Source of the DNA: an uncultured Gemmatimonadaceae bacterium
GTDB taxonomy: Bacteria; Gemmatimonadota; Gemmatimonadetes; Gemmatimonadales; Gemmatimonadaceae
NCBI GenBank assembly: GCA_963751275.1
Contig: CAVVTZ010000009.1
Span: forward strand, 544,001 to 608,000
Length of the DNA: 64,000 bases
Reading direction: 5' to 3'
Part shown: in pieces, positions 61-57,653 of the stretch
Numbering within the stretch: the first letter of the stretch is position 1
Layout: every line of letters starts with the position of its first letter
Made by a program: the position numbers and the translations under genes
The notes under the pieces: generated by a model
What the model was told of the DNA's origin: nothing
Databases searched by the model: none
The model's input: the letters and a program-made list of their open reading frames with translations, nothing else

Positions 61-3000
61 ATGGGACGTCTTGTCAAGTCAGTTCTCGCGATCGTTTGCG
101 CGCTGATCGCGTTGCCCGCATTGGCGGCAGCGCAGGAAGGCGCAACGATCAGCGGGCGCGTGACGAGTGAGGCCGGTGCACCACTGAATTCCGCCAACGT
201 GTTCCTCGAAGGGATGAACATCGGAACGCTGGCGAAGGAAGATGGCCGGTACACGTTCGTCGTGCCCGCAGCCCGCGTGAAGGGCCAGCAGGTGACAGTG
301 ACCGCCCGCTTGATCGGCTACCGCGCGAAGTCGGCGACGATCACGCTCGCGGCCGGTGCGATCACGCAGGATTTCGTGTTGGCGACCAATCCGCTCCGGC
401 TCGGCGAAGTCGTCGTGACGGGTGCCGGTACGGCCACCACGGTCGGCAAGCTTGGCGTCGTGATCAACAACGTCGACTCGACGGCGATCGCGAATTCGAG
501 CGAATACAACATCGTGAACGCGCTGGCGGCGAAGGCGCCGAACGTCAAGGTCAATAGCCAGGCGGGCGACCCGGGCGCTTCGTCGTACATCCAGATCCGC
601 GGGCTCCGGTCGCTGTCGGGCACGGGGCAGCCGCTGTTCGTGGTCGACGGCACGCCGATCGACAACCAGACGAACTCCACCACGGGCTCGACGGGCGGCA
701 CGGTGGCCCCGAACCGCGCGGCGGACATCGATCCGAACGACATCGAGTCGGTGGACATCCTGAAGGGTTCGGCGGCGGCCGCGATCTACGGTGCGGCGGC
801 GTCGGACGGCGCGATCCTGATCACGACGAAGTCCGGTAAGTCGGGCGCGACGCGCTTCAGCTTCTCGTCGCAGCTGCAGGTGAACGGTGTGAGCCACGAG
901 GTCCCGCTGCAGACGGACTACGCGCAGGGCAACGGCGGGGTGACCGATAAGTGCGCCGCGAACCTGACGACGGGCTGCACGGCGACCAGCATCTCCTACG
1001 GCGCGTCGCTCGCGGGCGGCACGACGACGTACGATCACTACACCGAGCTGTTCCGCGAAGGCGATCAGTGGAACAACAACCTGATGCTCTCCGGCGGCAA
1101 CGATCGGACCACGTACTACCTGTCGATGGGGTATTCGAATACCCAGGGTGTCATCACGGGCCCGAACAACTGGTACGACCAGTACAATCTGCGCGTGAAG
1201 GCGTCGCAGCGGCTGGCTGACCGCGTCGTGGTCAGCGGCAACATCGCGTACGTCGACACGCACGGGTCGTTCATTCAGCGTGGTTCCAACGTGTCCGGCC
1301 TCTTGCTCGGCGGATTGCGCACGCCGCCGGCGTTCAACAACCAGCCGTACCTCGACACGATCACCGGGTTGCAGCGCTCGTACCGGCATCCGGCGTACTG
1401 GCCGGGTTCGCAGGTGTCGTCGCGCGGCTACGACAATCCGTTCTTCGTGCTGAACTCCGATCCGGCGACGTCGCAATTGAATCGCGCGTTCGGCAATGTG
1501 GCCGTCGACTGGGAAGTCAACGACTGGCTGTCCGTCAAGGACAACCTGGGCGCGGACTACTACAACGACCAGCGCACGGAAGCGCTGGCGCAGTCGTCGT
1601 CCGGGTTCCCGACCGGTCTGGTGACCGTCGGCAACTATTCGGTCTACAGCATCGACAACTATCTGACCGCGACCGGCACGAAGACGTTCAATCCGGACTT
1701 CAGCGGGTCGTTGACGCTGGGCACGGACGTGCAGTCGAACAGCCAGACGCAGAACTTCACGCAGGGCCAGACGCTGGTCGCGCCGACGCCGTACGCGATC
1801 ACGAACACGGTGACCTACGTGCCCTCGACGTACAGTTCGCTCATCCATTCGCTCTCGTACTACGCGCATGCGACGGCGGACCTGTTCAATCAGCTGTATG
1901 TGACGCTCGGCGTTCGCCGCGACGGGTTCTCGACGTTCGGTGCGAGCGAGCCGTATGCCTGGTATCCGCAGGCCAACGTGGCGTGGACGTTCACGAACGC
2001 GTTGGGCAACACGGAACAGAAGGGTGTGCTGAGCTTCGGCAAGGTACGCGTCGGTTACGGCGAGACGGGCAAGCCGCCCGCTCCGTACTCCACGCAGACC
2101 GTGCTGGCGGCCGGCGCCTCGACGTTCTATGGGTCGGGCTACGGCGACTTCCTCCTCGGTTCGCAGAACGGGCATGGCGGTCTGTTGAGCGGGGCGAATC
2201 TGGGCAACGACAACATCCTGCCCGAGCGTGAGAAGGAACTGGAAGCCGGTCTTGATTTCGGCTTCTTCAACCAGACCGTCGATGCCGGCATCACGTGGTA
2301 CAAGGAGAACTCGACGGACGTCATTCAGGCGCTGCCGATCCCGCCGTCCACCGGCTACACGGGCGCGCTGTCGAACGCCGCGGCGATCGAGAACAAGGGC
2401 TTTGAAGTGACCGCGAATTGGCGTCCGCTGACCACGGCGAAGACGTCGCTGGAGTTCGGTGTCACGTGGGGCCAGAACTTCACGAACGCCACGAGTCTGG
2501 GCGGCGCGCAGTTCTACTACATCGCCGGCGGTACGTTCACCGGCGCCGTGGGTGCCATGTACCTGAACAACGGCATCGTGATGCAGGGGCAGGACTTCGT
2601 CCGCTGCGGTAAAGGTCTCGAGGATGCTACCGATCCGACCATCGCGTCGTACTGTGATGGCGCGCCCAAGAACGCGCTGTACATCGATGCGAACGGCTTC
2701 CCGATCACGGATCCGAACCAGCAGATCATCGCGAATCCGAATCCGAGCTGGATCGGTGGGTTCCATGGTTCGCTGCGCTTCGACAAGCTCACCGTGACGT
2801 TCCTGGTGGATCACAAGCAGGGCGGCCAGGTGTGGAACGGGACGCAGGGCGCACTCGAGTACTTCGGAACGCACAAGATCACGGATCTCCGCAACACGAA
2901 CCAGACGTTCGGTACGTCGGGCTGGTTCCCGGGCGCCGTCGTCGGTCCGGGCGCGGGCACGTCTGTGCTGATCGATCAGAATTGGTTCGAGGGCGACGGC

Positions 3001-3288
3001 TCAGGCTTCAGCGGTCCGTCGGCTCAGAACGTGGAAGACGGCACGTACACCAAGCTCCGCGAGATCGGCCTGCAGTACACGCTGGCCGGACGCTGGGTCA
3101 CGCACAATCTCGGTCTTTCGAGCGTGGACCTGCGCTTCGCGGGACGCAACCTGTACACCTGGACGAACTACACGGGCGTCGATCCCGAGACGAACCTCGG
3201 CGGAGCCGGCGTGACGTTCCAGGGCGTCGACTACTTCAACAGTCCGCAGACCAGGTCGTTCGTGTTTTCCATCGGCCTGAACCGCTAG
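61..3288 (+). CDS. SusC/RagA-family TonB-dependent outer membrane receptor (copy 1)
   Basis: GGAGG RBS before ATG61 and a signal peptide. Carboxypeptidase-regulatory-like N-domain, plug motifs PLFVVDG and DIDPNDIESVDILKG..AAAIYG, and a typical C-terminal barrel. Confidence 0.95.
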   Translation: MGRLVKSVLAIVCALIALPALAAAQEGATISGRVTSEAGAPLNSANVFLEGMNIGTLAKEDGRYTFVVPAARVKGQQVTVTARLIGYRAKSATITLAAGAITQDFVLATNPLRLGEVVVTGAGTATTVGKLGVVINNVDSTAIANSSEYNIVNALAAKAPNVKVNSQAGDPGASSYIQIRGLRSLSGTGQPLFVVDGTPIDNQTNSTTGSTGGTVAPNRAADIDPNDIESVDILKGSAAAAIYGAAASDGAILITTKSGKSGATRFSFSSQLQVNGVSHEVPLQTDYAQGNGGVTDKCAANLTTGCTATSISYGASLAGGTTTYDHYTELFREGDQWNNNLMLSGGNDRTTYYLSMGYSNTQGVITGPNNWYDQYNLRVKASQRLADRVVVSGNIAYVDTHGSFIQRGSNVSGLLLGGLRTPPAFNNQPYLDTITGLQRSYRHPAYWPGSQVSSRGYDNPFFVLNSDPATSQLNRAFGNVAVDWEVNDWLSVKDNLGADYYNDQRTEALAQSSSGFPTGLVTVGNYSVYSIDNYLTATGTKTFNPDFSGSLTLGTDVQSNSQTQNFTQGQTLVAPTPYAITNTVTYVPSTYSSLIHSLSYYAHATADLFNQLYVTLGVRRDGFSTFGASEPYAWYPQANVAWTFTNALGNTEQKGVLSFGKVRVGYGETGKPPAPYSTQTVLAAGASTFYGSGYGDFLLGSQNGHGGLLSGANLGNDNILPEREKELEAGLDFGFFNQTVDAGITWYKENSTDVIQALPIPPSTGYTGALSNAAAIENKGFEVTANWRPLTTAKTSLEFGVTWGQNFTNATSLGGAQFYYIAGGTFTGAVGAMYLNNGIVMQGQDFVRCGKGLEDATDPTIASYCDGAPKNALYIDANGFPITDPNQQIIANPNPSWIGGFHGSLRFDKLTVTFLVDHKQGGQVWNGTQGALEYFGTHKITDLRNTNQTFGTSGWFPGAVVGPGAGTSVLIDQNWFEGDGSGFSGPSAQNVEDGTYTKLREIGLQYTLAGRWVTHNLGLSSVDLRFAGRNLYTWTNYTGVDPETNLGGAGVTFQGVDYFNSPQTRSFVFSIGLNR

Positions 3289-3298
3289 GAGACCCCAG

Positions 3299-4717
3299 GT
3301 GCATAAACTCATAAAGATCACACTCGCGGCCGCGCTGCCCGTTGTCTGGGCAGCCGGTTGCAGCGACTTCCTGAAGGGCGGCGAGTTGACGAACAACCCC
3401 AACAACGCCACCCAGGGGAGCGCCACGAACGACAACCTGTTCATCCCGATCCAGGTGAACCAGATCGCGCAGCAGAATTCCGAGGTCGCGTGGGGGATCG
3501 CCCAGTGGTTGCAGTCGCTGTACGGGCACGCGCGGCAGCAGGTCGGGACGTACAACTATCTCAATGCACAGCTGGGTACGGCCGGGTGGGACAACGATTG
3601 GAACACCATCTGGACCGGAGGCGGGCTGACGGATATTCGCCAGCTCGAGGTGCAGGCTCTGGCCCAGAGCGTGCCGGACCACAAGTACAACGGCATCGCG
3701 CTCATCATGGAAGCCTGGATGATCGGCAACGGGGCTGACTGGTGGGGTGCTCTGCCGTACTCGCAGGCGAATAACTACTTCGTGTACCCGACCCCTGCGT
3801 TCGACTCGCAGCAGGTGGTGTACGACAGCGTCCTCTCGAAGCTCGATCAGGGTATCAGCGAGCTGGCGATTGGCGGTGTCGGTCCCGGACCCGGCGTAGA
3901 CCTCGTCTACAACGGGAGCTCGGCGAAGTGGACGGCGTTGGCGCACACGCTCAAGGCGCGCTTCATGCTGCACGAAGTGCTCGCCGGGGGCGCGACGTAT
4001 GCCAATGTGCTCACGGAAGCCAACCTGGGTATCGCGTCGAACGCGGGCGACTACAACTCGTACTTCGTCGACGGCATCCAGAACTCGTCGAACAACTGGT
4101 GGCAGGAAATGGATGGCGGCGGTGGCACGGGCCGGTCCGGCGACATCATCGCAGGCATTGCGACGTCCTCCCCGGGCGGCGTGGCGCATGACACGGCGAA
4201 GATCGTGAAGTTGCTCCGGGCCGCCAGCGATCCGCGTCTCCTCGAGTACTTCGACCCCGCCAATGACAACGAAGCTTTCCTGACTAAGTTCCGGCTCAGC
4301 GCTGGGTTCCCCCAGCCGCTGGTCACGTACAATGAGAACCTGCTCATCAAGGCCGAGGCGCAGTTGCACACCGGTGATGCTGCCGGCGCGCTGACGACGC
4401 TCAGGGCGGAGCAGGCGGCGTGGGCTGCTACTGGCGTGCCGTGGCATAACGCGCTCACCATCACGCCGGCGTCGGTCGCCAACGACAGCACCATCGGAAC
4501 GGAGAAGTACTTCACGCTGTTCCAGAACGTCGAGTCCTGGAACGACTGGAAGCGCCTCTGCTTCCCGAAGCTGCTTCCCGTTGCGGCGAATCCAACGTTC
4601 GGGAACACGATCCCGTCGCGTATCCTGTACCAGATCACGGAGCTCCAGACGAATCCGAACGTGCCGGCGAACGGTCCGTTCAACTGGAACGACACGCGTA
4701 AGGGTTGCACCAGCTGA
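3299..4717 (+). CDS. SusD/RagB-family lipoprotein (copy 1)
   Basis: Lipobox AAGC, NNPN motif, W..LAHTLKARF and ESWNDWKR; directly follows SusC. Confidence 0.92.
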   Translation: MHKLIKITLAAALPVVWAAGCSDFLKGGELTNNPNNATQGSATNDNLFIPIQVNQIAQQNSEVAWGIAQWLQSLYGHARQQVGTYNYLNAQLGTAGWDNDWNTIWTGGGLTDIRQLEVQALAQSVPDHKYNGIALIMEAWMIGNGADWWGALPYSQANNYFVYPTPAFDSQQVVYDSVLSKLDQGISELAIGGVGPGPGVDLVYNGSSAKWTALAHTLKARFMLHEVLAGGATYANVLTEANLGIASNAGDYNSYFVDGIQNSSNNWWQEMDGGGGTGRSGDIIAGIATSSPGGVAHDTAKIVKLLRAASDPRLLEYFDPANDNEAFLTKFRLSAGFPQPLVTYNENLLIKAEAQLHTGDAAGALTTLRAEQAAWAATGVPWHNALTITPASVANDSTIGTEKYFTLFQNVESWNDWKRLCFPKLLPVAANPTFGNTIPSRILYQITELQTNPNVPANGPFNWNDTRKGCTS

Positions 4718-17507: not shown

Positions 17508-17526
17508 GTACGTAACTGCGTTCGTA

Positions 17527-17934
17527 GAACCCCGAACGCCGTGAGGCGCACCCCGAACGCCGTGAGGCGTGAGGCGTGCGAGGAACGGACTGTACGGCGT
17601 GAGCCGAACCCCTGACAGCGTGATTCGCGACCCACGCTCCGGCATTCGTCCCCCTAACGCCGGCGTGGGGTGCGCCTCACGCCTCACGCCCGTTCGTCGC
17701 ACGCCTCACGCCTCACGGCGTTCGTGCGCCTCACGCCTCACAGTCCGTTCGTCGCATGCCTCACGCCTCACGGCGTTCGGGGTGCGCCTCACGCCTCACA
17801 GTCCGTTCGTCGCACGACTCACGCCTCACGGCCTTCGGGGTGCGCCTCACGCCTCACAGTCCGTTCGTCGCATGCCTCACGCCTCACGGCGTTCGGGGGG
17901 ACGAACGACGGGGTTCGGGTCTCGCCTCACGCCG
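17527..17934. repeat. Composite repeat: inverted CCCGAACGCCGTGAGGCG units plus four tandem ~58-bp units built of CGCCTCA heptamers
   Basis: Units start at 17670, 17724, 17782 and 17840. The left part (about 17530-17600) is the reverse complement of the unit. Lies between convergent stop codons. Confidence 0.9.
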
Positions 17935-18534
17935 TCAGTCGTTGATCCGCAGCGTGTCCGTCCGGTCCGCGATGATCTCGACTCTCCGCGGCGTCCCGAC
18001 CGATTCTCCGCGCTTGCCGAGTGCGATGATCCACCATGTTCCGGCTCGCAGGGTGAGCAATGCTCGCTCATTCACGATCTTCGCGCGCGCGAGTTCCCGT
18101 CCGCCGGCCGCGGCTTCCTTCTCGAGTTCGCCCGTGTCGACCGCGCGCACCGGCCCCTCGTGGTGCCGCAGCGTATCCCGGCGGATCCGGAGACTCTCGG
18201 CATTCGCGGCATCGCGGGTGAACGCGGCGTACGCGTCCGCGTAGGCCGGTGTGCGGCGGTCGGTCTTGTCGAGGGAATCGGCGCGCGTGTTGAGCCGCGT
18301 GCGCGCTCGCTGGTACTCGGCGTTCAGCGAATCCGCGGCGTGATGCGCGGGGTCGTTCACAATGAGGAGCGAGGGATCCACCGGCGCGGCGAGCACTTCC
18401 ACGGCTCCCGGCACGGTGGTAGAATCCAACGTGACGCGCAGCGTGCCGCTGCGCGCGCACGCGACGGCCGCGAGGAGCACGACGGGAGCGGCGCGCCGCA
18501 GTCTCCCAACGAGGGCGCACACTGAGTGTGGCAT
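17935..18534 (-). CDS. Hypothetical exported protein or lipoprotein (start uncertain)
   Basis: C-terminal part of ORF 17935..19104 with a RRAAPVVLLAAVAC lipobox-like signal. Confidence 0.6.
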   Translation of the reverse strand: MPHSVCALVGRLRRAAPVVLLAAVACARSGTLRVTLDSTTVPGAVEVLAAPVDPSLLIVNDPAHHAADSLNAEYQRARTRLNTRADSLDKTDRRTPAYADAYAAFTRDAANAESLRIRRDTLRHHEGPVRAVDTGELEKEAAAGGRELARAKIVNERALLTLRAGTWWIIALGKRGESVGTPRRVEIIADRTDTLRIND

Positions 18535-26862: not shown

Positions 26863-26889
26863 CCGCAACGCCAGGTCCGTACTTGGTGC

Positions 26890-27642
26890 CCCGAACGCCG
26901 TGAGTCACGAGGCGTACGTCGAACTGACTGTGCGGCGTGACTCGCAACCCGAACACCGTGAGTCGAGACCCGAGAGCCGTGACTCGTACCCCCAACGCCG
27001 CGAGTCACTCGTCAGCCCTCGGCGTGGGCGGGAGCGGGGGCTTCCCGGGACTTGCGGAGCATCACGCGCAGGATGCGCGAGATCGCCGAGTGGAGGCCAA
27101 TGCGCGAGTTCGCGACGGAGGGACTCAGTTGGTCGCGTGCGCGGTAGTACCACTCGCGGGACTCGCGCGCCGAACCGAGCGCATACTCGTAGAAGCGGGC
27201 GCGGTCGCGGCGGCCGAGTCGGCTGTATCCTTCGGCGATGTTCACGCCGCTCGATGCCGTGGCGCGTTTGAGTTGGTCCGCGACCTGCGCGGACTGGGGA
27301 TGCGCAATCAGTCGCTCCGCGTCCCGTGCCCCGAGCTCCGCGGCGTAGAGCGCGGCACGGTAAACGCGCATCCCCCAGATCGCATCACCACGGATCGCGA
27401 CTGGCACCAATGCTTCCCACATCTCGTATTTCACCGCTCGCCTCCGTACACGCAGGGGGCGGAACGATCGTGACGGACTGCCTACTCGCCATCACCGATT
27501 CGTTTCAACCGGAATCCCCCCGCCGCACTCACGGCGTTGGGGGTTCGAGTCACGGCTCTCGGGTGTCGACTCACGGTGTTCGGGTTGCGAGTCACGCCGT
27601 ACAGTCAGTTCGACGTACGCCTCATGACTCACGGCCTTCGGG
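26890..27642. mobile_element. Inverted-repeat cassette 1: 116-bp arms enclosing a four-helix-bundle gene
   Basis: Arms 26890-27005 and 27527-27642 are reverse complements with 6 mismatches and internal 21-bp subrepeats. Mobility is inferred. Confidence 0.7.
27012..27434 (-). CDS. Four-helix-bundle protein (23S rRNA IVS protein / bAvd-like family)
   Basis: RVY..A, DQLKRA..S...NIAEGY.R, RFYEYALGSARE; GGAGG RBS before GTG. Confidence 0.92.
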   Translation of the reverse strand: MKYEMWEALVPVAIRGDAIWGMRVYRAALYAAELGARDAERLIAHPQSAQVADQLKRATASSGVNIAEGYSRLGRRDRARFYEYALGSARESREWYYRARDQLSPSVANSRIGLHSAISRILRVMLRKSREAPAPAHAEG

Positions 27643-27643
27643 T

Positions 27644-28529
27644 CTAGTCCGGGATAGCGGTTCCCGGGAGAACGTACGTCAACGGGTCCACCGCGCGGCC
27701 GTTCACGTGGATCTCGTAATGCGAGATGCGGCCCCGTCGAGAGCCCCGTGTTGCCGATGTTCGCGATCACCTGGCCGCGCTTCACCTTCTGGCCGACCCG
27801 CACGACGATGCGCGAGCAGTGCGCGTACTTCGTGGTGATCCCGAAGCCGTGGTCGATCTCGAGCACGTTGCCGTAGCCCGTTTCCTTGCGCACGGCCGTG
27901 ACGACGCCGCCGGCGGGGGCGACGATCGGCGCGCCCATGGGCGCGCTCACGTCGATCCCCTCGTGCGGGCGCGCAATGTGCAGAATGGGATGGAAGCGCG
28001 AACGGCTGAACGTGCTCGAGAGCCAGCCGGCGGTGGGCATGATGCTCGGGATCGACTGGAATTTCGCGGCACCGGCGCGCAGCGTATCGGAGACCTCGGC
28101 GAAGCTCGCCGAGAGTGTTTTGGCGCGCGCGATCATGCCGTCGATGTCGGGCTCATCGCTGGCGAGTCCCAGCGCGGTGAGATCCCGCCTCGTGGAATCG
28201 TGGCGCGCGGCGTAGGTGTCATCCGAGGACAGCCCCGCGAGCAGGCGGATCTCCGTGTCGCGGCGGTCGATCTCCTCGAGCGTGGTGCTCAGCGTGTCGA
28301 TCTGCGCGCGGAGGGTGCCGACGGCCACGCGAAGGCTCGCGTCGTCCTGGCCGCGCAGGTAGCGCGAAATGGAATACGCCCCGATCCCGAGCCCGACCAG
28401 CGCCAGGACCGCCAGCGTTCCCACGCCATACATGGCCCAACGCGCGCCCCGCTCCGAGACATGGAGCTGGCGCGGCGAATCGGCCCCATGGGGGACGAGG
28501 AGGAGGGTCCAGCGGAGGGGAGAGGGCAA
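27644..28529 (-). CDS. M23 family metallopeptidase with TM helix and coiled coil; frameshift near 27722
   Basis: PSIMP..G, HEGID, YAH, GNTGLSTGPHL|HYEIHVNG..VDP; corrected stop TAG at 27644-27646. Confidence 0.9.
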
Positions 28530-28532
28530 AGG

Positions 28533-28662
28533 ACTTGGGAGTCGGGAGTCGGGAATCGAGGGTCTAAACCTACCCCTTTAAGACTCCCGGCGGGAGAGTG
28601 CCGTCACGGCCCTAATTGGGGTCCGAAGGCGCAGTTCCCGATTCCCGACTCCCGATTCCCGA
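28533..28662. repeat. Inverted pair of short heptamer tandem repeats (GGGAGTC / GACTCCC-type)
   Basis: gggagtcgggagtcgggaatcg versus ttcccgattcccgactcccgattcccg. Confidence 0.7.
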
Positions 28663-28671
28663 ACTTTACGC

Positions 28672-29340
28672 CTACTGGTAAAGCGCGGGAAACTCTTTCT
28701 TCAGCGCCTCGACCTTGGGTATGTCGTTGTAGACGATGTACGGCTGGTCCGGGTGCTTATCCAGGTAGCCCTGATGGTAGTCCTCGGCCGCGTAGAACTT
28801 CTTGAGCTGGGAGACTTCCGTCACGATCGGCGCCGGGTAGACCTTCGCGGCAGTGAGCTGCGCGATGTACGCCTTCGCGAGCTTTGCCTGCTCGGCGTTC
28901 GTGTAGAAGATGGCCGAGCGGTACTGCGTGCCGTGGTCGGGGCCCTGGTAGTTGAGCTCGGTGGGGTTATGCGCGACCGAGAAGAAGACCTTGAGCAGTT
29001 CGCCGTAGGTGATCTTGCTCGGATCGTAGATGACCTGCACCGATTCGGCGTGGCCGGTGGTGCCGGTGCTCACGAGTTCGTAGCCCGGGTCGCTCACTGT
29101 GCCGCCGGCGTAGCCGGAGGTGGAGGAGATGACGCCCTTCACATGCTCGAACACGGCCTGAACGCCCCAGAAGCAGCCGCCGGCGAACACGGCGGTGTCG
29201 CGCGCGGGGGCGGAGGCGAGGGCCGCATTCTGCTCGGGATCGGGCACAGGAACCGTCGCGCCAGCGTTGCCGCAGGCGATGGCGAGAGCAAGGGGGAGCA
29301 TCGCGATCATCATCGCGAGGTGGGGAATCGTGCCGCGCAT
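28672..29340 (-). CDS. msrA: Peptide-methionine (S)-S-oxide reductase, exported
   Basis: FAGGCFWG, TGHAE, QYRSAIF, AEDYHQ; N-terminal lipoprotein-like signal. Confidence 0.97.
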   Translation of the reverse strand: MRGTIPHLAMMIAMLPLALAIACGNAGATVPVPDPEQNAALASAPARDTAVFAGGCFWGVQAVFEHVKGVISSTSGYAGGTVSDPGYELVSTGTTGHAESVQVIYDPSKITYGELLKVFFSVAHNPTELNYQGPDHGTQYRSAIFYTNAEQAKLAKAYIAQLTAAKVYPAPIVTEVSQLKKFYAAEDYHQGYLDKHPDQPYIVYNDIPKVEALKKEFPALYQ

Positions 29341-29417
29341 GGTAGGTCTCCTTCGGTGGTGTGTTCAAGTTCATTGAACCAATACTTCGTGATCATGCGA
29401 GTTCCGTGACTGCGAAC

Positions 29418-30101
29418 CCCGAACTCCGTACTTGGTCACCCGAACTCCGCCATTGGCAACTGAGGCATGGTCACGGCTCAGGCGGTGCTAGCAAGGGGCG
29501 GGCGCGTGGGGGAATGCGATGTCGCGTGAAATGGGACGGTGATGAGAGGGGGTCGGCGATACGTGATCATCATTCATCGTCGGCCGGAGGAATCAGTGAG
29601 CTACGAAGCGTGGGAAATGTCGGTGCCCGAACACATCAAGACCGATCCGTTGTGGGGACTTCGCGTTTATCGTGCTGCCATGTACGCCGCCGAGGTCGGG
29701 CGGCGCGACTCGGCGTGGCTGGCGAGAAAACAGGGATTCGAGGAACTGGCGCAACAACTGAGACGATCGACGTCATCGATCCCCGCGAACATGGCGGAGG
29801 GCTACAGCCGCAATGGTAAGCGCGATCGGAATCGCTTCTACGAATACGCCCTGGGCTCCGCGCGCGAATCGCGCACTTGGTACTATCAAGCGCGTGATGT
29901 GCTCGGCCCCAACGCCACGCACTCCCGCATCGCCCTGCACACCACCATCGCCCGCATTCTCGCAGTCCTTGTTCGCCGAGACCGCGAGGCAGCCGTGCCC
30001 ATCACCGAACCCGAACCATAACGATTCCCATATCCGCACAAGCCGTGACTACGCCTCAGTTGCCAATGGCGGAGTTAGGGTGACCAAGTACGGCGTTCGG
30101 G
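29418..30101. mobile_element. Inverted-repeat cassette 2: 61-bp arms enclosing a four-helix-bundle gene
   Basis: Arms 29418-29478 and 30041-30101 with 4 mismatches; sits between msrB and msrA. Confidence 0.7.
29596..30021 (+). CDS. Four-helix-bundle protein, paralog of 27012..27434
   Basis: GGAGG RBS and GTG29596 align with the paralog's start; QQLRRS..SIPANMAEGYSR and RFYEYALGSARESR.WYY. Confidence 0.92.
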   Translation: MSYEAWEMSVPEHIKTDPLWGLRVYRAAMYAAEVGRRDSAWLARKQGFEELAQQLRRSTSSIPANMAEGYSRNGKRDRNRFYEYALGSARESRTWYYQARDVLGPNATHSRIALHTTIARILAVLVRRDREAAVPITEPEP

Positions 30102-30102
30102 T

Positions 30103-30705
30103 CTAGGAAGTCTTCACGAACTTGAGAGCGACCGAATTGATGCAGTATCGAAGCCCCGTGGGTTTCGGCCCGTCTTCGAATACATGCCCTTGATGCGCAT
30201 CGCACCGCTTGCATTTGATCTCCGCCTTCGCGCCGTAGCCGGTGTACGGCGTCTCGAGCACGTTGTCCTGCGCGATCGGCTGCCAGAAGCTCGGCCAGCC
30301 GGTGCCGGAGTCGAACTTGGCGGCCGAGCTGAACAGCGCGGTATCGCAACAGATGCACCGGTAGATCCCGGCGTCGTGGAATTCGTCGTACTGGCCGGTG
30401 AAGGCGCGCTCGGTGCCTTCCTGCCGCGTGATGTAGTACGATTCCGGCGACAGCTGCGCTTTCCATTCCGCGTCGGTCTTCATGATCTTCGGCACCTTCT
30501 TCGCGCCGAGGTTCTTGCCGGCGGCGGAGAATTCGACGATGAGCACGTCGGTCATGGCAGTCATTGCGTCGAGGGGCGGGAGGTTCGTCTTGCGGCGGAA
30601 GGCGGCGAGCATCGCGGTGGCGGCGGCGACGCCGCCGGCCGCGAGGAACGCGCGCCGCGAACTGGGCGCGAACATGAAGTCGCTCCCCGGATCGGTCTTG
30701 GTCAT
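30103..30705 (-). CDS. msrB: Peptide-methionine (R)-S-oxide reductase with Tat signal
   Basis: [32 protein letters not shown], two CxxC motifs; SRRAFL Tat motif. Confidence 0.97.
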
Positions 30706-35634: not shown

Positions 35635-35796
35635 CCCCTAACCACGTACTTGGTCCCCCGAACGCCGTGTTTGGCAGGGGAGGCGTGGCAACGGAACACG
35701 GCGTCCTTGGTATTGAAAACCCCAAGGACGCTAGAGCCGTTACCACCACTCAGTTGCCAAACACGGGGTTCGGGGGACCAAATACGCCGTACAGGG
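35635..35796. repeat. Empty hairpin element of the IR-cassette family
   Basis: cgtacttggtcccccgaacgccgtgtttggca ... tgccaaacacggggttcgggggaccaaatacg. Confidence 0.85.
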
Positions 35797-47368: not shown

Positions 47369-47510
47369 CCCCGGACTCCGTATTTGGTCCCCCGAACGCC
47401 GTTGATAGCAATTGAGGCGTGGTCACGGCTAAGGCGTTCCTAGAAACGCCCTAGCCGTGACCACGCCTCAATTGCTATCGACGGCGTTCGGGGACTAAGT
47501 ACGCAGTTCG
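47369..47510. repeat. Empty hairpin element, a close relative of the cassette 2 arms
   Basis: Arms at about 47379-47431 and 47452-47503; aligns with 29418-29490. Confidence 0.9.
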
Positions 47511-55802: not shown

Positions 55803-57653
55803 GTGATCCAACAGCTGCCGCATACGATACCCGATTCCGTCCGCGACACCGCCGTGGTGAAGACACCGCTCCCCGGCGGCGTTGGCGTATTCGTGCGCTG
55901 GCTCATGAACCTGCCGTCGTGGATCCAGGCGACTGGCGCCGCGGTGGGCGCCGCGATTGGCATCGCGGTGGTCTGGTTCCTCTGGAAACACCGCAAGGCG
56001 ATCTGGGCGTGGCTCACCACGCGCTCGCGCGGGATGAAGATCGCGCTGGCGTCGGTGGCGTTCGTGGTGGTCGCCGGCGCCGTGGCGTTCGGGATGGTCA
56101 GCTGGCATTACATGATGCACAACAACGATTTCTGCGTCAGCTGCCACGTGATGACGAACGCGTACTCGCGCTTCCAGCACAGCGAGCACAACAAGCTCCA
56201 GTGCCACGACTGCCACCAGCAGTCGCTGTACGCGAGCATGCGGCAGCTCGTGCTCTGGGTGGCGGAGAAGCCGCAGGCGATCCCGCCGCACGCGAAGGTG
56301 CCGAACAACGTCTGCGGCAATTGTCATATCCGGGGTCCGGGGCAGGACAGCGTCTGGAAGGAGATCAGCGCGACGGCGGGTCACCGCGTGCATTTCACGT
56401 CGGATTCCGCGAGCCTCAAGAACCTCCAGTGCACGAAGTGCCACGGCCTGGAGGTCCATCACTTCGTGCCGGTGGATTCATCGTGCGGCCAATCGGGATG
56501 CCATCAGAACCTCCCGATGAAGATCGCGAAGATGAAGGACCAGACGTCGCTGCATTGCACCAAGTGCCACCAGTTCACGCGCGCGGTGGCGGAGAACATC
56601 CCGAACGATTCGGCCAAGCGCATGCTGCACCCGACGTTCGACCAGTGCCTCGGCTGCCACGAGATGAAGAAGGTGCTGGGCGAGTACGACCAGTCGAAGG
56701 ATCCGCACAAGGGCGTCTGCGGCTCGTGCCACAACCCGCACACCCAGGCGACGCCGCAGGTGGCGTGGACGAGCTGCCAGAACTCGGGGTGTCACGCGAA
56801 GCCGGAGACGCTCACGCCGTTCCACCGCGGCATCACGGTGGCGGCCCTGGACAAGTGCGAGACGTGCCACCAGGCGCACACGTGGACCGTGAGCGGCGAC
56901 AAGTGTCTCGTCTGTCACAAGAGCATCTTCGAAGACCGCCCGCCCGGCACGAAGTCGCTCGCCGGCGTGACCCCCGCGCAGCTCACCGCGTTCGGCGGCC
57001 AGTCGGGAGCGGCCGGCACCGGTTACACCGGTTCGGAACCGTTCTCGCACCGGCGCCATCGCGACCTGCAGTGCACCTCGTGCCACGGCACGGGTAAGGC
57101 GCACGGCGCGCTGCTGGTGAAGACGAAATCGGATTGCCAGAGCTGCCACCACGCGAACGCGAAGGTCACGGCGAGCGGATCCGTGTCGGGCCCGTCGTCG
57201 GCGAAGTGCACCGTGTGCCACACCACCGTGGGACTCCGGCAGGCGATCCCCGACACGTTGATGGTCAAGCTCTCCGTGTGGAAGGAGCCGCGCACCAAAG
57301 TGCTCTCCTTCCGCCATGACCAGCACGGTTTCGCGGATTGCCTCACGTGCCACGGCACGCCCGTGACGATGGTGGTGCCCGCCGACAAGAGCTGTGAGAG
57401 TTGCCACGCGAAGCACCATGTGGTGGACGCGTCGTGCCGCGCGTGTCACGCGACGCCCAAGGCGGCGCACACGCGCGAGGCGCATCTCGGATGTGAAGGT
57501 TCGCAATGTCACGCGCCGCAGACCGTCGCGGCGCTGCAGCCGAAACGGAACGTCTGCCTTACCTGTCACTCGGATAAGGTGACGCACAAGCAGGGCAAGG
57601 AGTGCGCGGCATGCCACCAAGTGCAGTGGCTCACCCAGCAGAAGGGCACATGA
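55803..57653 (+). CDS. Inner-membrane-anchored multiheme cytochrome c with NapC/NirT-like N-terminus (17 CxxCH plus 3 CX4CH)
   Basis: Two TM helices, then FCVSCHVM...S.H...CHDCH, followed by a long heme chain. Confidence 0.92.
   Translation: MIQQLPHTIPDSVRDTAVVKTPLPGGVGVFVRWLMNLPSWIQATGAAVGAAIGIAVVWFLWKHRKAIWAWLTTRSRGMKIALASVAFVVVAGAVAFGMVSWHYMMHNNDFCVSCHVMTNAYSRFQHSEHNKLQCHDCHQQSLYASMRQLVLWVAEKPQAIPPHAKVPNNVCGNCHIRGPGQDSVWKEISATAGHRVHFTSDSASLKNLQCTKCHGLEVHHFVPVDSSCGQSGCHQNLPMKIAKMKDQTSLHCTKCHQFTRAVAENIPNDSAKRMLHPTFDQCLGCHEMKKVLGEYDQSKDPHKGVCGSCHNPHTQATPQVAWTSCQNSGCHAKPETLTPFHRGITVAALDKCETCHQAHTWTVSGDKCLVCHKSIFEDRPPGTKSLAGVTPAQLTAFGGQSGAAGTGYTGSEPFSHRRHRDLQCTSCHGTGKAHGALLVKTKSDCQSCHHANAKVTASGSVSGPSSAKCTVCHTTVGLRQAIPDTLMVKLSVWKEPRTKVLSFRHDQHGFADCLTCHGTPVTMVVPADKSCESCHAKHHVVDASCRACHATPKAAHTREAHLGCEGSQCHAPQTVAALQPKRNVCLTCHSDKVTHKQGKECAACHQVQWLTQQKGT

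Follow-up and report, generated by a model that had tools for sequence, protein, structure and literature searches.

What is a small gene doing at the tip of a long mirrored repeat between msrB and msrA, and what keeps the two halves of that repeat alike? The question is raised by a 684-bp element, hereafter cassette 2, in a 64,000-nt stretch of DNA (the window) from an uncultured Gemmatimonadaceae bacterium (assembly GCA_963751275.1, contig CAVVTZ010000009.1, positions 544,001 to 608,000). The genome of the window, G000, is an assembly of 3.1 Mb in 14 contigs that is 83% complete, and the genomes considered here are metagenome assemblies throughout. An inverted-repeat search delineated two arms of 68 nt with 90% complementarity at a spacing of 548 nt, which BLAST aligned over 61 nt with 4 mismatches (93.4%, E 9e-22). 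Congruent with the initial annotation, which had described a paralogous gene between 61-bp arms with 4 mismatches, the arms enclose an open reading frame (ORF) for a four-helix-bundle protein on the plus strand, antisense to msrB and msrA, which are both on the minus strand (Table 1).

The cassette is a gene-bearing member of a hairpin population. We further consider, with a probability of roughly 55%, that it represents a cassette resembling the intervening sequences (IVSs) of ribosomal RNA, seated at the apex of a mobile hairpin, and that its arms are kept alike by exchange at the DNA level.

The hairpin population and the history of the msr site

The arms of cassette 2 had initially been regarded as the cassette's own. 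Instead, they form one copy of a dispersed repeat family, the cassette-2 arm matching 56 loci in G000 with up to 94% identity, and the arms of the six other cassettes of this genome match 16-35 loci each. In a census of close inverted pairs, G000 was found to hold 309 hairpin loci, amounting to 1.6% of the genome, with 15 families of at least two members. The largest family comprises 105 loci with a 7/21-nt periodicity and is matched by the arms of cassettes 1 (the second copy in the window), 2, C10 and C2, and a 65-member family of 9-nt periodicity is matched by the arms of the C9:82k cassette. The representative of this 65-locus cluster (members of which include C2:93084-93171) is AT-richer (CATCATGTCCATCATGTAAATCCTGTC...), and the single-linkage clustering applied may have chained more than one family.

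Nearly all members of the cassette-2 arm family carry no gene. These gene-less copies keep the whole stem up to GGCGGTGCT / CCGC.C.AGCC, followed by a short variable apex, and hold none of the cassette interior; genome-wide matches to the cassette are confined to query positions 8-97 and 626-707. Considering that the stem is common and the interior absent from the gene-less copies, the gene module occupies the apex of a hairpin of which many other copies lack a gene. The limits of the module are approximate, being set where the similarity to gene-less copies ends, as judged from the genome-wide matches and a by-eye alignment of 12 such copies. The converse relation, with the gene-less hairpins as deletion derivatives of the cassette in the manner of miniature inverted-repeat transposable elements (MITEs), was rejected, as no remnant of the interior was found in them.

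The repeat units are also apparent within the window. The left arm is built of 21-nt units (CCCGAAC TCCGTAC TTGGTCA / CCCGAAC TCCGCCA TTGGCAA / ...). The motif CGTACTTGGT occurs 4 times where 0.02 occurrences are expected, at 26878 (3 nt outside the cassette-1 arm), 29427, 30083 (minus strand) and 35645 (in a gene-less hairpin), and CCCGAACNCCG is present 15 times against 0.43 expected. Both motifs had been pointed out in the initial annotation and are real and well above chance, including the placement of CGTACTTGGT inside the cassette-2 arms and just outside cassette 1. Furthermore, the arms of each of the two cassettes match one another far better than those of the other cassette, as had been noted, with the similarity between the cassettes limited to ~24-25 nt at 83-88%.

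We recovered the msr region from three other species of the genus, G002, G004 and G005, which align over msrA, the cassette and msrB. Their cassettes share the orientation of that in G000 and have arms of 98, 68 and 64 nt, respectively; the other two of the six genus genomes, which are fragmented, returned no match to msr. The synonymous divergence (dS) of msrA is ~0.64-0.68 between G000 and the others and 0.25-0.40 among the others, and G000 is hence the outgroup to the three. The comparison shows that the cassette already occupied the msrB-msrA spacer before the four sampled species diverged. That it interrupts an msrB-msrA pair, as initially stated, was on the other hand not demonstrated: all four recovered genus regions are filled, and an uninterrupted junction was found neither there nor at eight loci from other genera (including L011 from G012, an unpublished genome), seven of which hold one msr gene only and one of which, L007, has msrA followed by msrB, the opposite order. 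The remaining coordinates display the same two msr patterns.

The pairing of the arms is maintained within each copy, as had been proposed. Indeed, in a four-way alignment with 62 stem pairs, 22 pairs are changed on both sides and 91.7% of the cells are paired, a level reached by none of 500 shuffles and falling to 34-42% when the partner columns are slid by 1-3 positions, although with four related sequences the covariation reflects few independent events. Between orthologues, the left arms of G000 and G002/G004 are 77-80% identical and the right arms ~60%, and the arms of G005 share 31-49% identity with those of its close relatives. Within each copy, the complementarity of the arms stays at 83-93%; arms without upkeep would be expected to be far lower at such neutral divergence. 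Two causes had been offered for the pairing, selection on the stem and local regeneration of one arm from the other, and we consider regeneration at least as plausible as stem selection.

The arms of G005 are informative in this respect. Here, both direct repeats of the left arm have CGCTAAC in place of CCCGAAC, and the right arm is changed to match. Matches to CCCGAAC-type arms number 61 in G000, 37 in G004, 60 in G002 and 5 in G005, and those to CGCTAAC-type arms 0, 3, 41 and 57 in the same order. Thus, G005, the sole genome poor in the CCCGAAC type, carries CGCTAAC-type arms at the msr site. Moreover, the arms of G000 share 90-94% identity with gene-less copies of the same genome, as compared to 60-80% with the orthologous arms. 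These sequence comparisons are suggestive of an arm type at the msr site that follows the hairpin population of each genome. Replacement of the G005 cassette by a C10-type paralogue was rejected by the tree, in which the G005 copy falls within the msr-site clade on a long branch. We also inspected the contigs of four DNA runs, none of which spans the region. One contig in each of three runs joins 29449 to 30070, with a shorter side of only 33 nt; these joins were not counted as excision, the simplest interpretation being a gene-less copy from elsewhere or from another organism. The arm portion of this mapping has a very high summed depth, as a repeat would.

Sister cassettes provide further events of this kind. 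At the C10 site, G000, G002, G004 and G005 carry the cassette, and in G001 the flanks are connected by 85 nt of unrelated spacer that has a small terminator-like hairpin but no arms; a target-site duplication was unreadable at this one filled/empty pair. At the C9:147k site, the orientation of the interior between its flanks in G002, G004 and G005 is opposite to that in G000, and the arms are unrelated in sequence between species, with a gene that is 75-78% identical. All or most genomes have a cassette at the C9:82k and C9:285k sites, where the flanks diverge more slowly than the interiors and arms. At the cassette-1 site, G002 and G005 have a closed gene-less palindrome of the same modules, and in G004 the modules are tandem-expanded and the gene is absent. 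The difference at the latter site may reflect either a gain or a loss, considering that G000 is the outgroup to the three sister species and that cassette 1 groups with the lineage of the C2 site at a depth similar to that of the species split. The cassettes are in other words mostly inherited at fixed sites, where modules and arms have been gained or lost, flipped and re-armed.

Two observations complement these sites. In G004, the tandem array at the cassette-1 site (locus L013, ~2890-3460) has a period of ~37 nt, ~4 copies being located on one side and ~11 copies in inverted orientation on the opposite side. Directly at the C10 right arm (L061 1733-1797), G002, G004 and G005 carry ~3.7-4.2 kb that are absent from G000, and the edge of the indel coincides with the hairpin arm.

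We favor a DNA-level process because of the wholesale arm switches, the likeness to copies in the same genome, the inversion, the closed gene-less hairpins that pair equally well and the missing RNase III (see below). The complementarity would be upheld mainly by exchange of DNA, rather than by slow compensatory change in an RNA stem, the inverted arms converting or recombining with each other and with copies elsewhere in the dispersed family. Being shared, the arms would serve as portable homology, through which gene modules may be gained, lost, flipped and re-armed at hairpin sites. As the lineage appears to be without RNase III, the cassette would not be cut from the msr transcript by this enzyme, unlike in rRNA, and msrA would rely on a ribosome-binding site, and perhaps also a promoter, of its own within the conserved 77 nt beside the cassette.

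The enclosed gene and the layout of its family

The protein encoded by cassette 2 scores 59.6 bits with PF05635 ('23S rRNA-intervening sequence protein'; curated cut-off 33.8) and 65.3 bits with TIGR02436 ('four helix bundle protein'; curated cut-off 24), as compared to 47.4 and 52.9 bits, respectively, for the protein of cassette 1, with which it shares 58.5% identity. The Pfam match spans only profile positions 29-82 of 106, and the protein therefore belongs to a divergent subfamily. The true start of the gene is probably the GTG at 29596, yielding 141 aa (MSYEAWE...), since GGAGGA is present at 29586-29591, the paralogue begins MKYEMWE, relatives align from residue 17-20, and the confidence of the structural model (predicted local distance difference test, pLDDT) is low at residues 1-20.

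This AlphaFold2 model, generated with 36 sequences, has a pLDDT of 89.7 and displays helices at residues 42-62, 68-90, 94-117 and 124-151. Foldseek comparison of the model recovered 2gsc (XCC0516; TM-score (TMt) 0.84, E 5e-4), which is matched also at the sequence level (E 8e-5), and 2rld (BT_0352, 'S23 ribosomal protein family'; TMt 0.91). Weaker matches (E 0.25-0.35) were obtained for Avd (4dwl, TMt 0.78) and a ribonucleoprotein of a diversity-generating retroelement (DGR; 8ub8, TMt 0.68). XCC0516 is described as a homopentameric ring in a passage of PMC4990558 that cites Lin et al. 2006. Pfam, TIGR and fold comparisons uncovered no recognizable catalytic domain in the cassette-2 protein. 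As for its function, the class we consider most likely is the binding of nucleic acid of its own repeat arms. Between the G000 gene and its G002 orthologue, the ratio of nonsynonymous to synonymous divergence (dN/dS) is 0.10, a value that shows purifying selection on the enclosed gene.

The layout of stem, gene and stem is shared by the relatives of this gene. In G000, PF05635 has 6 matches and 1 additional frameshifted copy (contig C2), and all 7 lie between inverted arms of 27 to ~200 nt. The cassette arms are half-hairpins, each non-palindromic by itself. In the genus, 26 of the 30 PF05635 loci in six genomes are bracketed in this manner, and three of the four misses lie at contig ends, leaving L041 as the only true exception. 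As a control, the same criteria were applied to random 300-nt targets in G000, 13 of 300 of which were bracketed. Ordinary genes are present between two hairpin elements in G000 as well, namely genes for a cupin, a DUF3761 protein, an alpha/beta hydrolase and lipoprotein-like ORFs, with each flank there being a complete palindrome.

We extended the comparison to relatives of the subfamily (pattern RFYEYALG), comprising 80 loci from many phyla, including Chloroflexota, Poribacteria, Rhodothermales, Planctomycetota, Verrucomicrobiota and Acidobacteriota, the nearest being uncultured Gemmatimonadaceae by record title. Five of the loci are cut, and 61 of the 75 that could be evaluated are bracketed, with 52 of 66 outside Gemmatimonadaceae. 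For the most part, arms in the other phyla consist of arrayed heptamers that contain CGT. When the left flank of one locus was compared with the right flank of another, 32 of 225 pairs still matched, and the arms of this subfamily are thus alike across taxa. Aggregated, these counts show that the stem-gene-stem layout is the rule for the family in G000 and its genus, as well as for the majority of the relatives sampled in other phyla.

Two split hairpins of G000, L019 (C1:45898-47161) and L029 (C9:615156-616398), have arms of 65 and 84 nt and loops of 645 and 875 nt with ORFs that lack a Pfam match. One of these ORFs is a predicted membrane protein of 160 aa, and the two loci may be hairpin apices that carry other cargo. 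The arms around the gene family have a median length of 56.5 nt in the genus (n=26) and 27 nt in other phyla (n=52); the longer arms of the genus may be linked to the missing RNase III.

Table 1. Features of the window discussed in the text.
Feature	Position	Strand	Description
Cassette 2 (684 bp)	29418-30101		left arm, 548-nt interior and right arm
Left arm of cassette 2	29418..29485		upstream of the four-helix-bundle gene; 21-nt (3 x 7) units
Right arm of cassette 2	30034..30101		reaches to 1 nt short of the msrB stop codon (30103-30105)
Gene module at the hairpin apex	29498..30024	+	leader, ORF and a few bases past the stop; approximate limits
Four-helix-bundle gene	29539..30021	+	mechanical ORF, 160 aa; reads RFYEYALGSARESRTWYY
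msrA	28672..29340	-	PF01625
msrB	30103..30705	-	PF01641 SelR
Cassette 1	26890..27642	-	arms 26890-27005 / 27527-27642, 116 nt, 95% complementary
Cassette-1 ORF	27012..27434	-	reads RFYEYALGSARESREWYY
Gene-less hairpin, cassette-2 arm family	47390..47493		52-nt arms, 94% complementary, no loop
Gene-less hairpin, same superfamily as the cassette-2 arms	35645..35786		50-nt arms, 84%, loop 42; starts with CGTACTTGGT
Compound gene-less palindrome, same superfamily	17518..17943		CCCGAACGCCGTGAGGCG units
Gene-less hairpin, other heptamer family (GGGAGTC GGGAGTC GGGAATC)	28531..28660		between the M23 peptidase gene and msrA; loop ~79 nt

The window thus holds two cassettes and a number of gene-less hairpins. 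The arms of cassette 1 consist of CCCGAACNCCGTGAGTC units plus CGTCGAACTGACTG and belong to the same repeat superfamily as the cassette-2 arms, and its site is flanked by a SusD-like gene and an M23 peptidase gene. The M23 peptidase ORF (27492..28529, minus strand) extends ~50 codons into the cassette-1 arm, and its orthologues align only to residue 269 of 345. The C-terminus as annotated (window 27492-27720) is probably an arm-encoded read-through, or the arm has displaced the original stop. The hairpin between the M23 peptidase gene and msrA is also present at its site in G002 and G005, and belongs to an 8-member family. In addition to msrA and msrB, the neighbors of cassette 2 include the M23 peptidase gene and a phosphodiesterase gene.

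The spacer of 77 nt between msrA and the left arm (29341-29417) includes a Shine-Dalgarno sequence for msrA, AAGGAG, 7 nt ahead of the ATG. The spacer is kept in the four species, with GAGTTCC and ACACTT as aligned blocks. Read on the msrA strand, it displays GGAACTC ... TTGGTTCAAT, a candidate promoter for msrA of the extracytoplasmic function (ECF) or extended -10 type, where the sigma-70 scan was silent. A scan of the cassette for sigma-70-like promoters gave no site, no terminator-like site was detected inside the cassette, and Rfam (rRNA families included) and tRNA scans of the window gave no match.

Competing explanations

Several observations weigh against a mobile hairpin with arms kept alike by DNA exchange. 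The evidence for upkeep at the DNA level, as opposed to the RNA level, is indirect. The link between arm type and hairpin population is derived from one switch, that of G005, among four related genomes, and at the msr site itself neither an inversion nor an empty site or a gene-less form is found among the four species. Several hairpin families of G000 (clusters of 19, 16, 14, 12, 9 and others) are without a cassette in the 83%-complete assembly. Furthermore, the G004 copy of the gene has one frame shift, and the G005 copy, on its long branch, has at least three; arms may hence outlast an intact gene, or the G004 and G005 assemblies may hold errors. The mismatches in the arms comprise 50 transitions and 74 transversions, as compared to 149 and 368 at fourfold sites of neighboring genes (odds ratio 1.67, p 0.017), the comparisons being made between related genomes and hence non-independent. 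Such a mild enrichment of transitions is congruent with G-T or G-U pairs being tolerated to some extent when either strand is folded as a hairpin. Finally, the absence of RNase III represents a lack of matches in the sampled genomes, and another nuclease for double-stranded RNA may be present.

Among the alternatives, a partnership similar to that of REPINs and RAYTs (hairpin-forming repetitive extragenic palindromic (REP) sequences and REP-associated tyrosine transposases) fares best and is compatible with a mobile hairpin maintained by DNA exchange, yet we hold it to be tentative. Each protein would recognize, propagate or protect its cognate hairpin family, with the gene-bearing copy as a vertically inherited master and the gene-less copies as non-autonomous. 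PMC3337134 lists as features of RAYTs a gene flanked by repeats, specificity between gene and repeat, and vertical inheritance, and a comparable picture emerges here: the 7 genes of G000 are all flanked by arms that are also found at 16-56 gene-less loci, the cassettes occupy conserved sites across species, and the arm type at the msr site switches with the hairpin population of the genome. The CGT-heptamer arms across phyla and the 32 of 225 matching swapped-flank pairs point in the same direction, and no Y1/RAYT transposase (PF01797) was found in the 83%-complete G000 that could account for the repeats, Y1 being the only transposase family searched. Such a partnership is nevertheless difficult to reconcile with a protein without a recognizable catalytic domain, with four cassettes in a single superfamily and at least six families that have no cassette, with the C9:147k gene, which is 75-78% conserved between arms that are unrelated between species, and with the complementary arms that persist around the frameshifted gene of G005.

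Somewhat less probable is an element that acts in RNA, the arms being selected to form a double-stranded stem in the transcript. The stem would insulate or stabilize the enclosed mRNA, or be cut by a double-strand-specific nuclease and thereby separate the cassette RNA and msrB from msrA. The architecture matches that of ORF-bearing rRNA IVSs as portrayed in PMC4990558, and both RNA strands of the cassette fold as a long stem in silico (z -7.9 for the plus and -12.9 for the minus strand, with none of 20 shuffles as good). The strong covariation in the stem and the mild transition-type enrichment over the fourfold-site baseline are likewise congruent with such a role. We withdrew an argument in the opposite direction, that an excess of transversions in the arms speaks against selection at the RNA level, as the fourfold baseline is even more transversion-rich. 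Selection on one RNA strand is however not reflected in the wobble-type mismatches of 26 cassettes, 29 such mismatches being in the gene sense and 21 antisense (p 0.32), thus without strand bias; the other mismatches in these arms are 74 transversions and 32 gaps. In G005, the arms were switched wholesale, with both direct repeats and both arms changed together, and the gene-less copies, with no or a very short loop, are equally complementary, which also speaks against a selected transcript stem.

The RNA-level element is further weakened by the apparent lack of RNase III. TIGR02191 has no match in G000, none in the 31 family genomes (the 30 others including G012), and none in the 46 genomes of the class in a sample of the phylum (G000 and 45 others, all of the latter at least 90% complete), as opposed to matches in 14 of the 15 genomes that represent the other classes of this phylum. 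PF14622 is similarly without a match over the cut-off in the 31 family genomes, G012 included, PF00636 gave none in 5 genomes, four of them single-contig, and tblastn with 3 RNase III proteins from the phylum returned a best E of 1.5. We found no explicit published statement of a lack of RNase III in Gemmatimonadetes in the literature searched. As no RNase III gene was found in the class, rRNA-style excision of the cassette is unlikely. The initial annotation had suggested that the msr transcript could have the insert looped out by the stem; such a stem does form on the msr-sense RNA in silico, but with RNase III undetected in G000 and the 45 class genomes, and a Shine-Dalgarno sequence of its own for msrA, the suggestion is not upheld. 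The window contains a single RNase-III-like match, to PF14622 at 57321-57596 (18.9 bits, below the cut-off), located on the strand opposite a 616-aa ORF (55803-57653) that is rich in CxxCH, a multihaem cytochrome, and we regard this hit as spurious.

It is improbable that the arms are operators or iterons, i.e. two inverted arrays of a protein-binding motif for autoregulation, with complementarity as a by-product. Most families do have a 7-nt (or 21-nt) periodicity, and when the arms are compared out of register the identity remains raised at shifts of 7 and 14 (0.45-0.46, compared with ~0.27; values at other shifts are ~0.25-0.32). The median identity in register is however 0.865, far above that at shifts of 7, 14 and 21, and the arms are therefore mirror copies and not just two arrays of one motif. 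Indeed, the cassette-2 arms consist of unlike heptamers, each mirrored position by position, and the hundreds of gene-less hairpins have nothing to regulate.

That an ordinary small gene merely came to lie between two independent repeat copies, as occurs for the other G000 genes between hairpin elements and for 13 of 300 random targets, is refuted by the counts, with all 7 copies of the genome, 26 of the 30 genus loci and 61 of the 75 other loci bracketed as compared to 4% of the random targets, and by cassette arms that are half-hairpins and not complete palindromes.

Relation to known systems

The S23p/four-helix-bundle family is very large and has been functionless on record since its discovery in rRNA IVSs in the early 1990s. 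Together with its genome and genus, the present locus indicates that the stem-gene-stem design is general and present outside rRNA, that the stems belong to dispersed hairpin populations which change in step with the cassette arms, and that at hairpin sites which themselves stay fixed, modules and arms come and go, are flipped and are exchanged, in a lineage without detected RNase III. The search for a function is thereby pointed to DNA-level or protein-hairpin interactions, away from rRNA-style processing alone. For annotation, the 'hypothetical' genes and their arms should be considered one unit, and arms can lengthen neighboring ORFs, as for the M23 peptidase gene. In the literature searched, we found no description of PF05635, TIGR02436 or S23p genes between inverted repeats outside rRNA, or tied to dispersed hairpins, nor of palindromic repeats of this arrangement in Gemmatimonadetes.

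A wider proposal, which we offer as speculation, is that PF05635 proteins and inverted oligomer-repeat hairpins constitute one phylum-spanning, unrecognized kind of element. A non-catalytic nucleic-acid-binding protein, encoded at the apex of one hairpin, would maintain or spread that hairpin family as RAYTs do REPINs, with the arms acting as landing pads for the copying, flipping, loss and re-arming of modules. The 23S rRNA IVSs would then be a special case that resides in rRNA, and the very long arms might have been allowed by loss of RNase III.

Integron cassettes were considered only; they have a single attC at one end as opposed to the two mirrored arms here, and no integrase search was made. 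As for DGRs, Avd acts on nucleic acid with a partner enzyme, and the cassette-2 protein shares its fold and superfamily, with weak Foldseek E-values as given above. A DGR was nonetheless rejected because the reverse transcriptase (PF00078) has 0 matches in G000; the template/variable repeat pair was not looked for. Moreover, the neighbors are msrA, msrB, M23 peptidase and phosphodiesterase genes, and flanking hairpin arms are not a feature of DGRs. The gene-less hairpins resemble MITEs, REP, BIME and ERIC-like elements in being short, intergenic and palindromic with tens of copies per family. They differ from MITEs in not being deletion derivatives of the cassette, and no mobilizing transposase was found, with Y1 alone having been searched.

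The parallel with REPIN-RAYT systems is more extensive. In PMC3337134 and 10.1101/2022.05.22.493013, RAYTs are characterized by a short gene flanked by repeats, by the tie of each gene to one repeat type and by vertical inheritance. The cassettes are alike in that the gene is flanked by repeats which also form a non-coding hairpin population, in having conserved, vertically inherited loci, and in that repeat type and locus appear to change together. In contrast, the gene here encodes a four-helix bundle without HUH/Y1 motifs, and identity with a RAYT was rejected, as no Y1 transposase (PF01797) was found in G000. There are also several paralogous cassettes per genome, four of which share one superfamily, and several families without a cassette. 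Lastly, the arms are long 7/21-nt arrays as compared to the 20-40 nt of REPs, and the gene lies inside one split hairpin rather than beside complete REPINs.

The remaining comparison is with the ORF-bearing IVSs of 23S rRNA. According to PMC4990558, the terminal inverted repeats of an IVS form a stem with the S23p ORF in the loop, excision by RNase III has been shown for Coxiella, and IVSs have long been suspected to be selfish or mobile, with Ralph and McClelland (1993) proposing that the ORF serves mobility. The IVSs of Coxiella burnetii (helix 45) and Leptospira are alike to cassette 2 in having a PF05635 gene in a stem loop and a unit of ~0.4-0.7 kb. Cassette 2 differs in lying between protein-coding genes, antisense to them, rather than in a 23S rRNA helix, in arms of 68 nt as compared to 28 bp in Coxiella, and in the membership of these arms in a dispersed family with hundreds of gene-less copies. 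RNase III, the excising enzyme of rRNA IVSs, was furthermore not found in this lineage. Departing from them in its location outside 23S rRNA, and probably in excision by RNase III as well, the cassette is by protein family and design closest to the ORF-bearing IVSs of rRNA.

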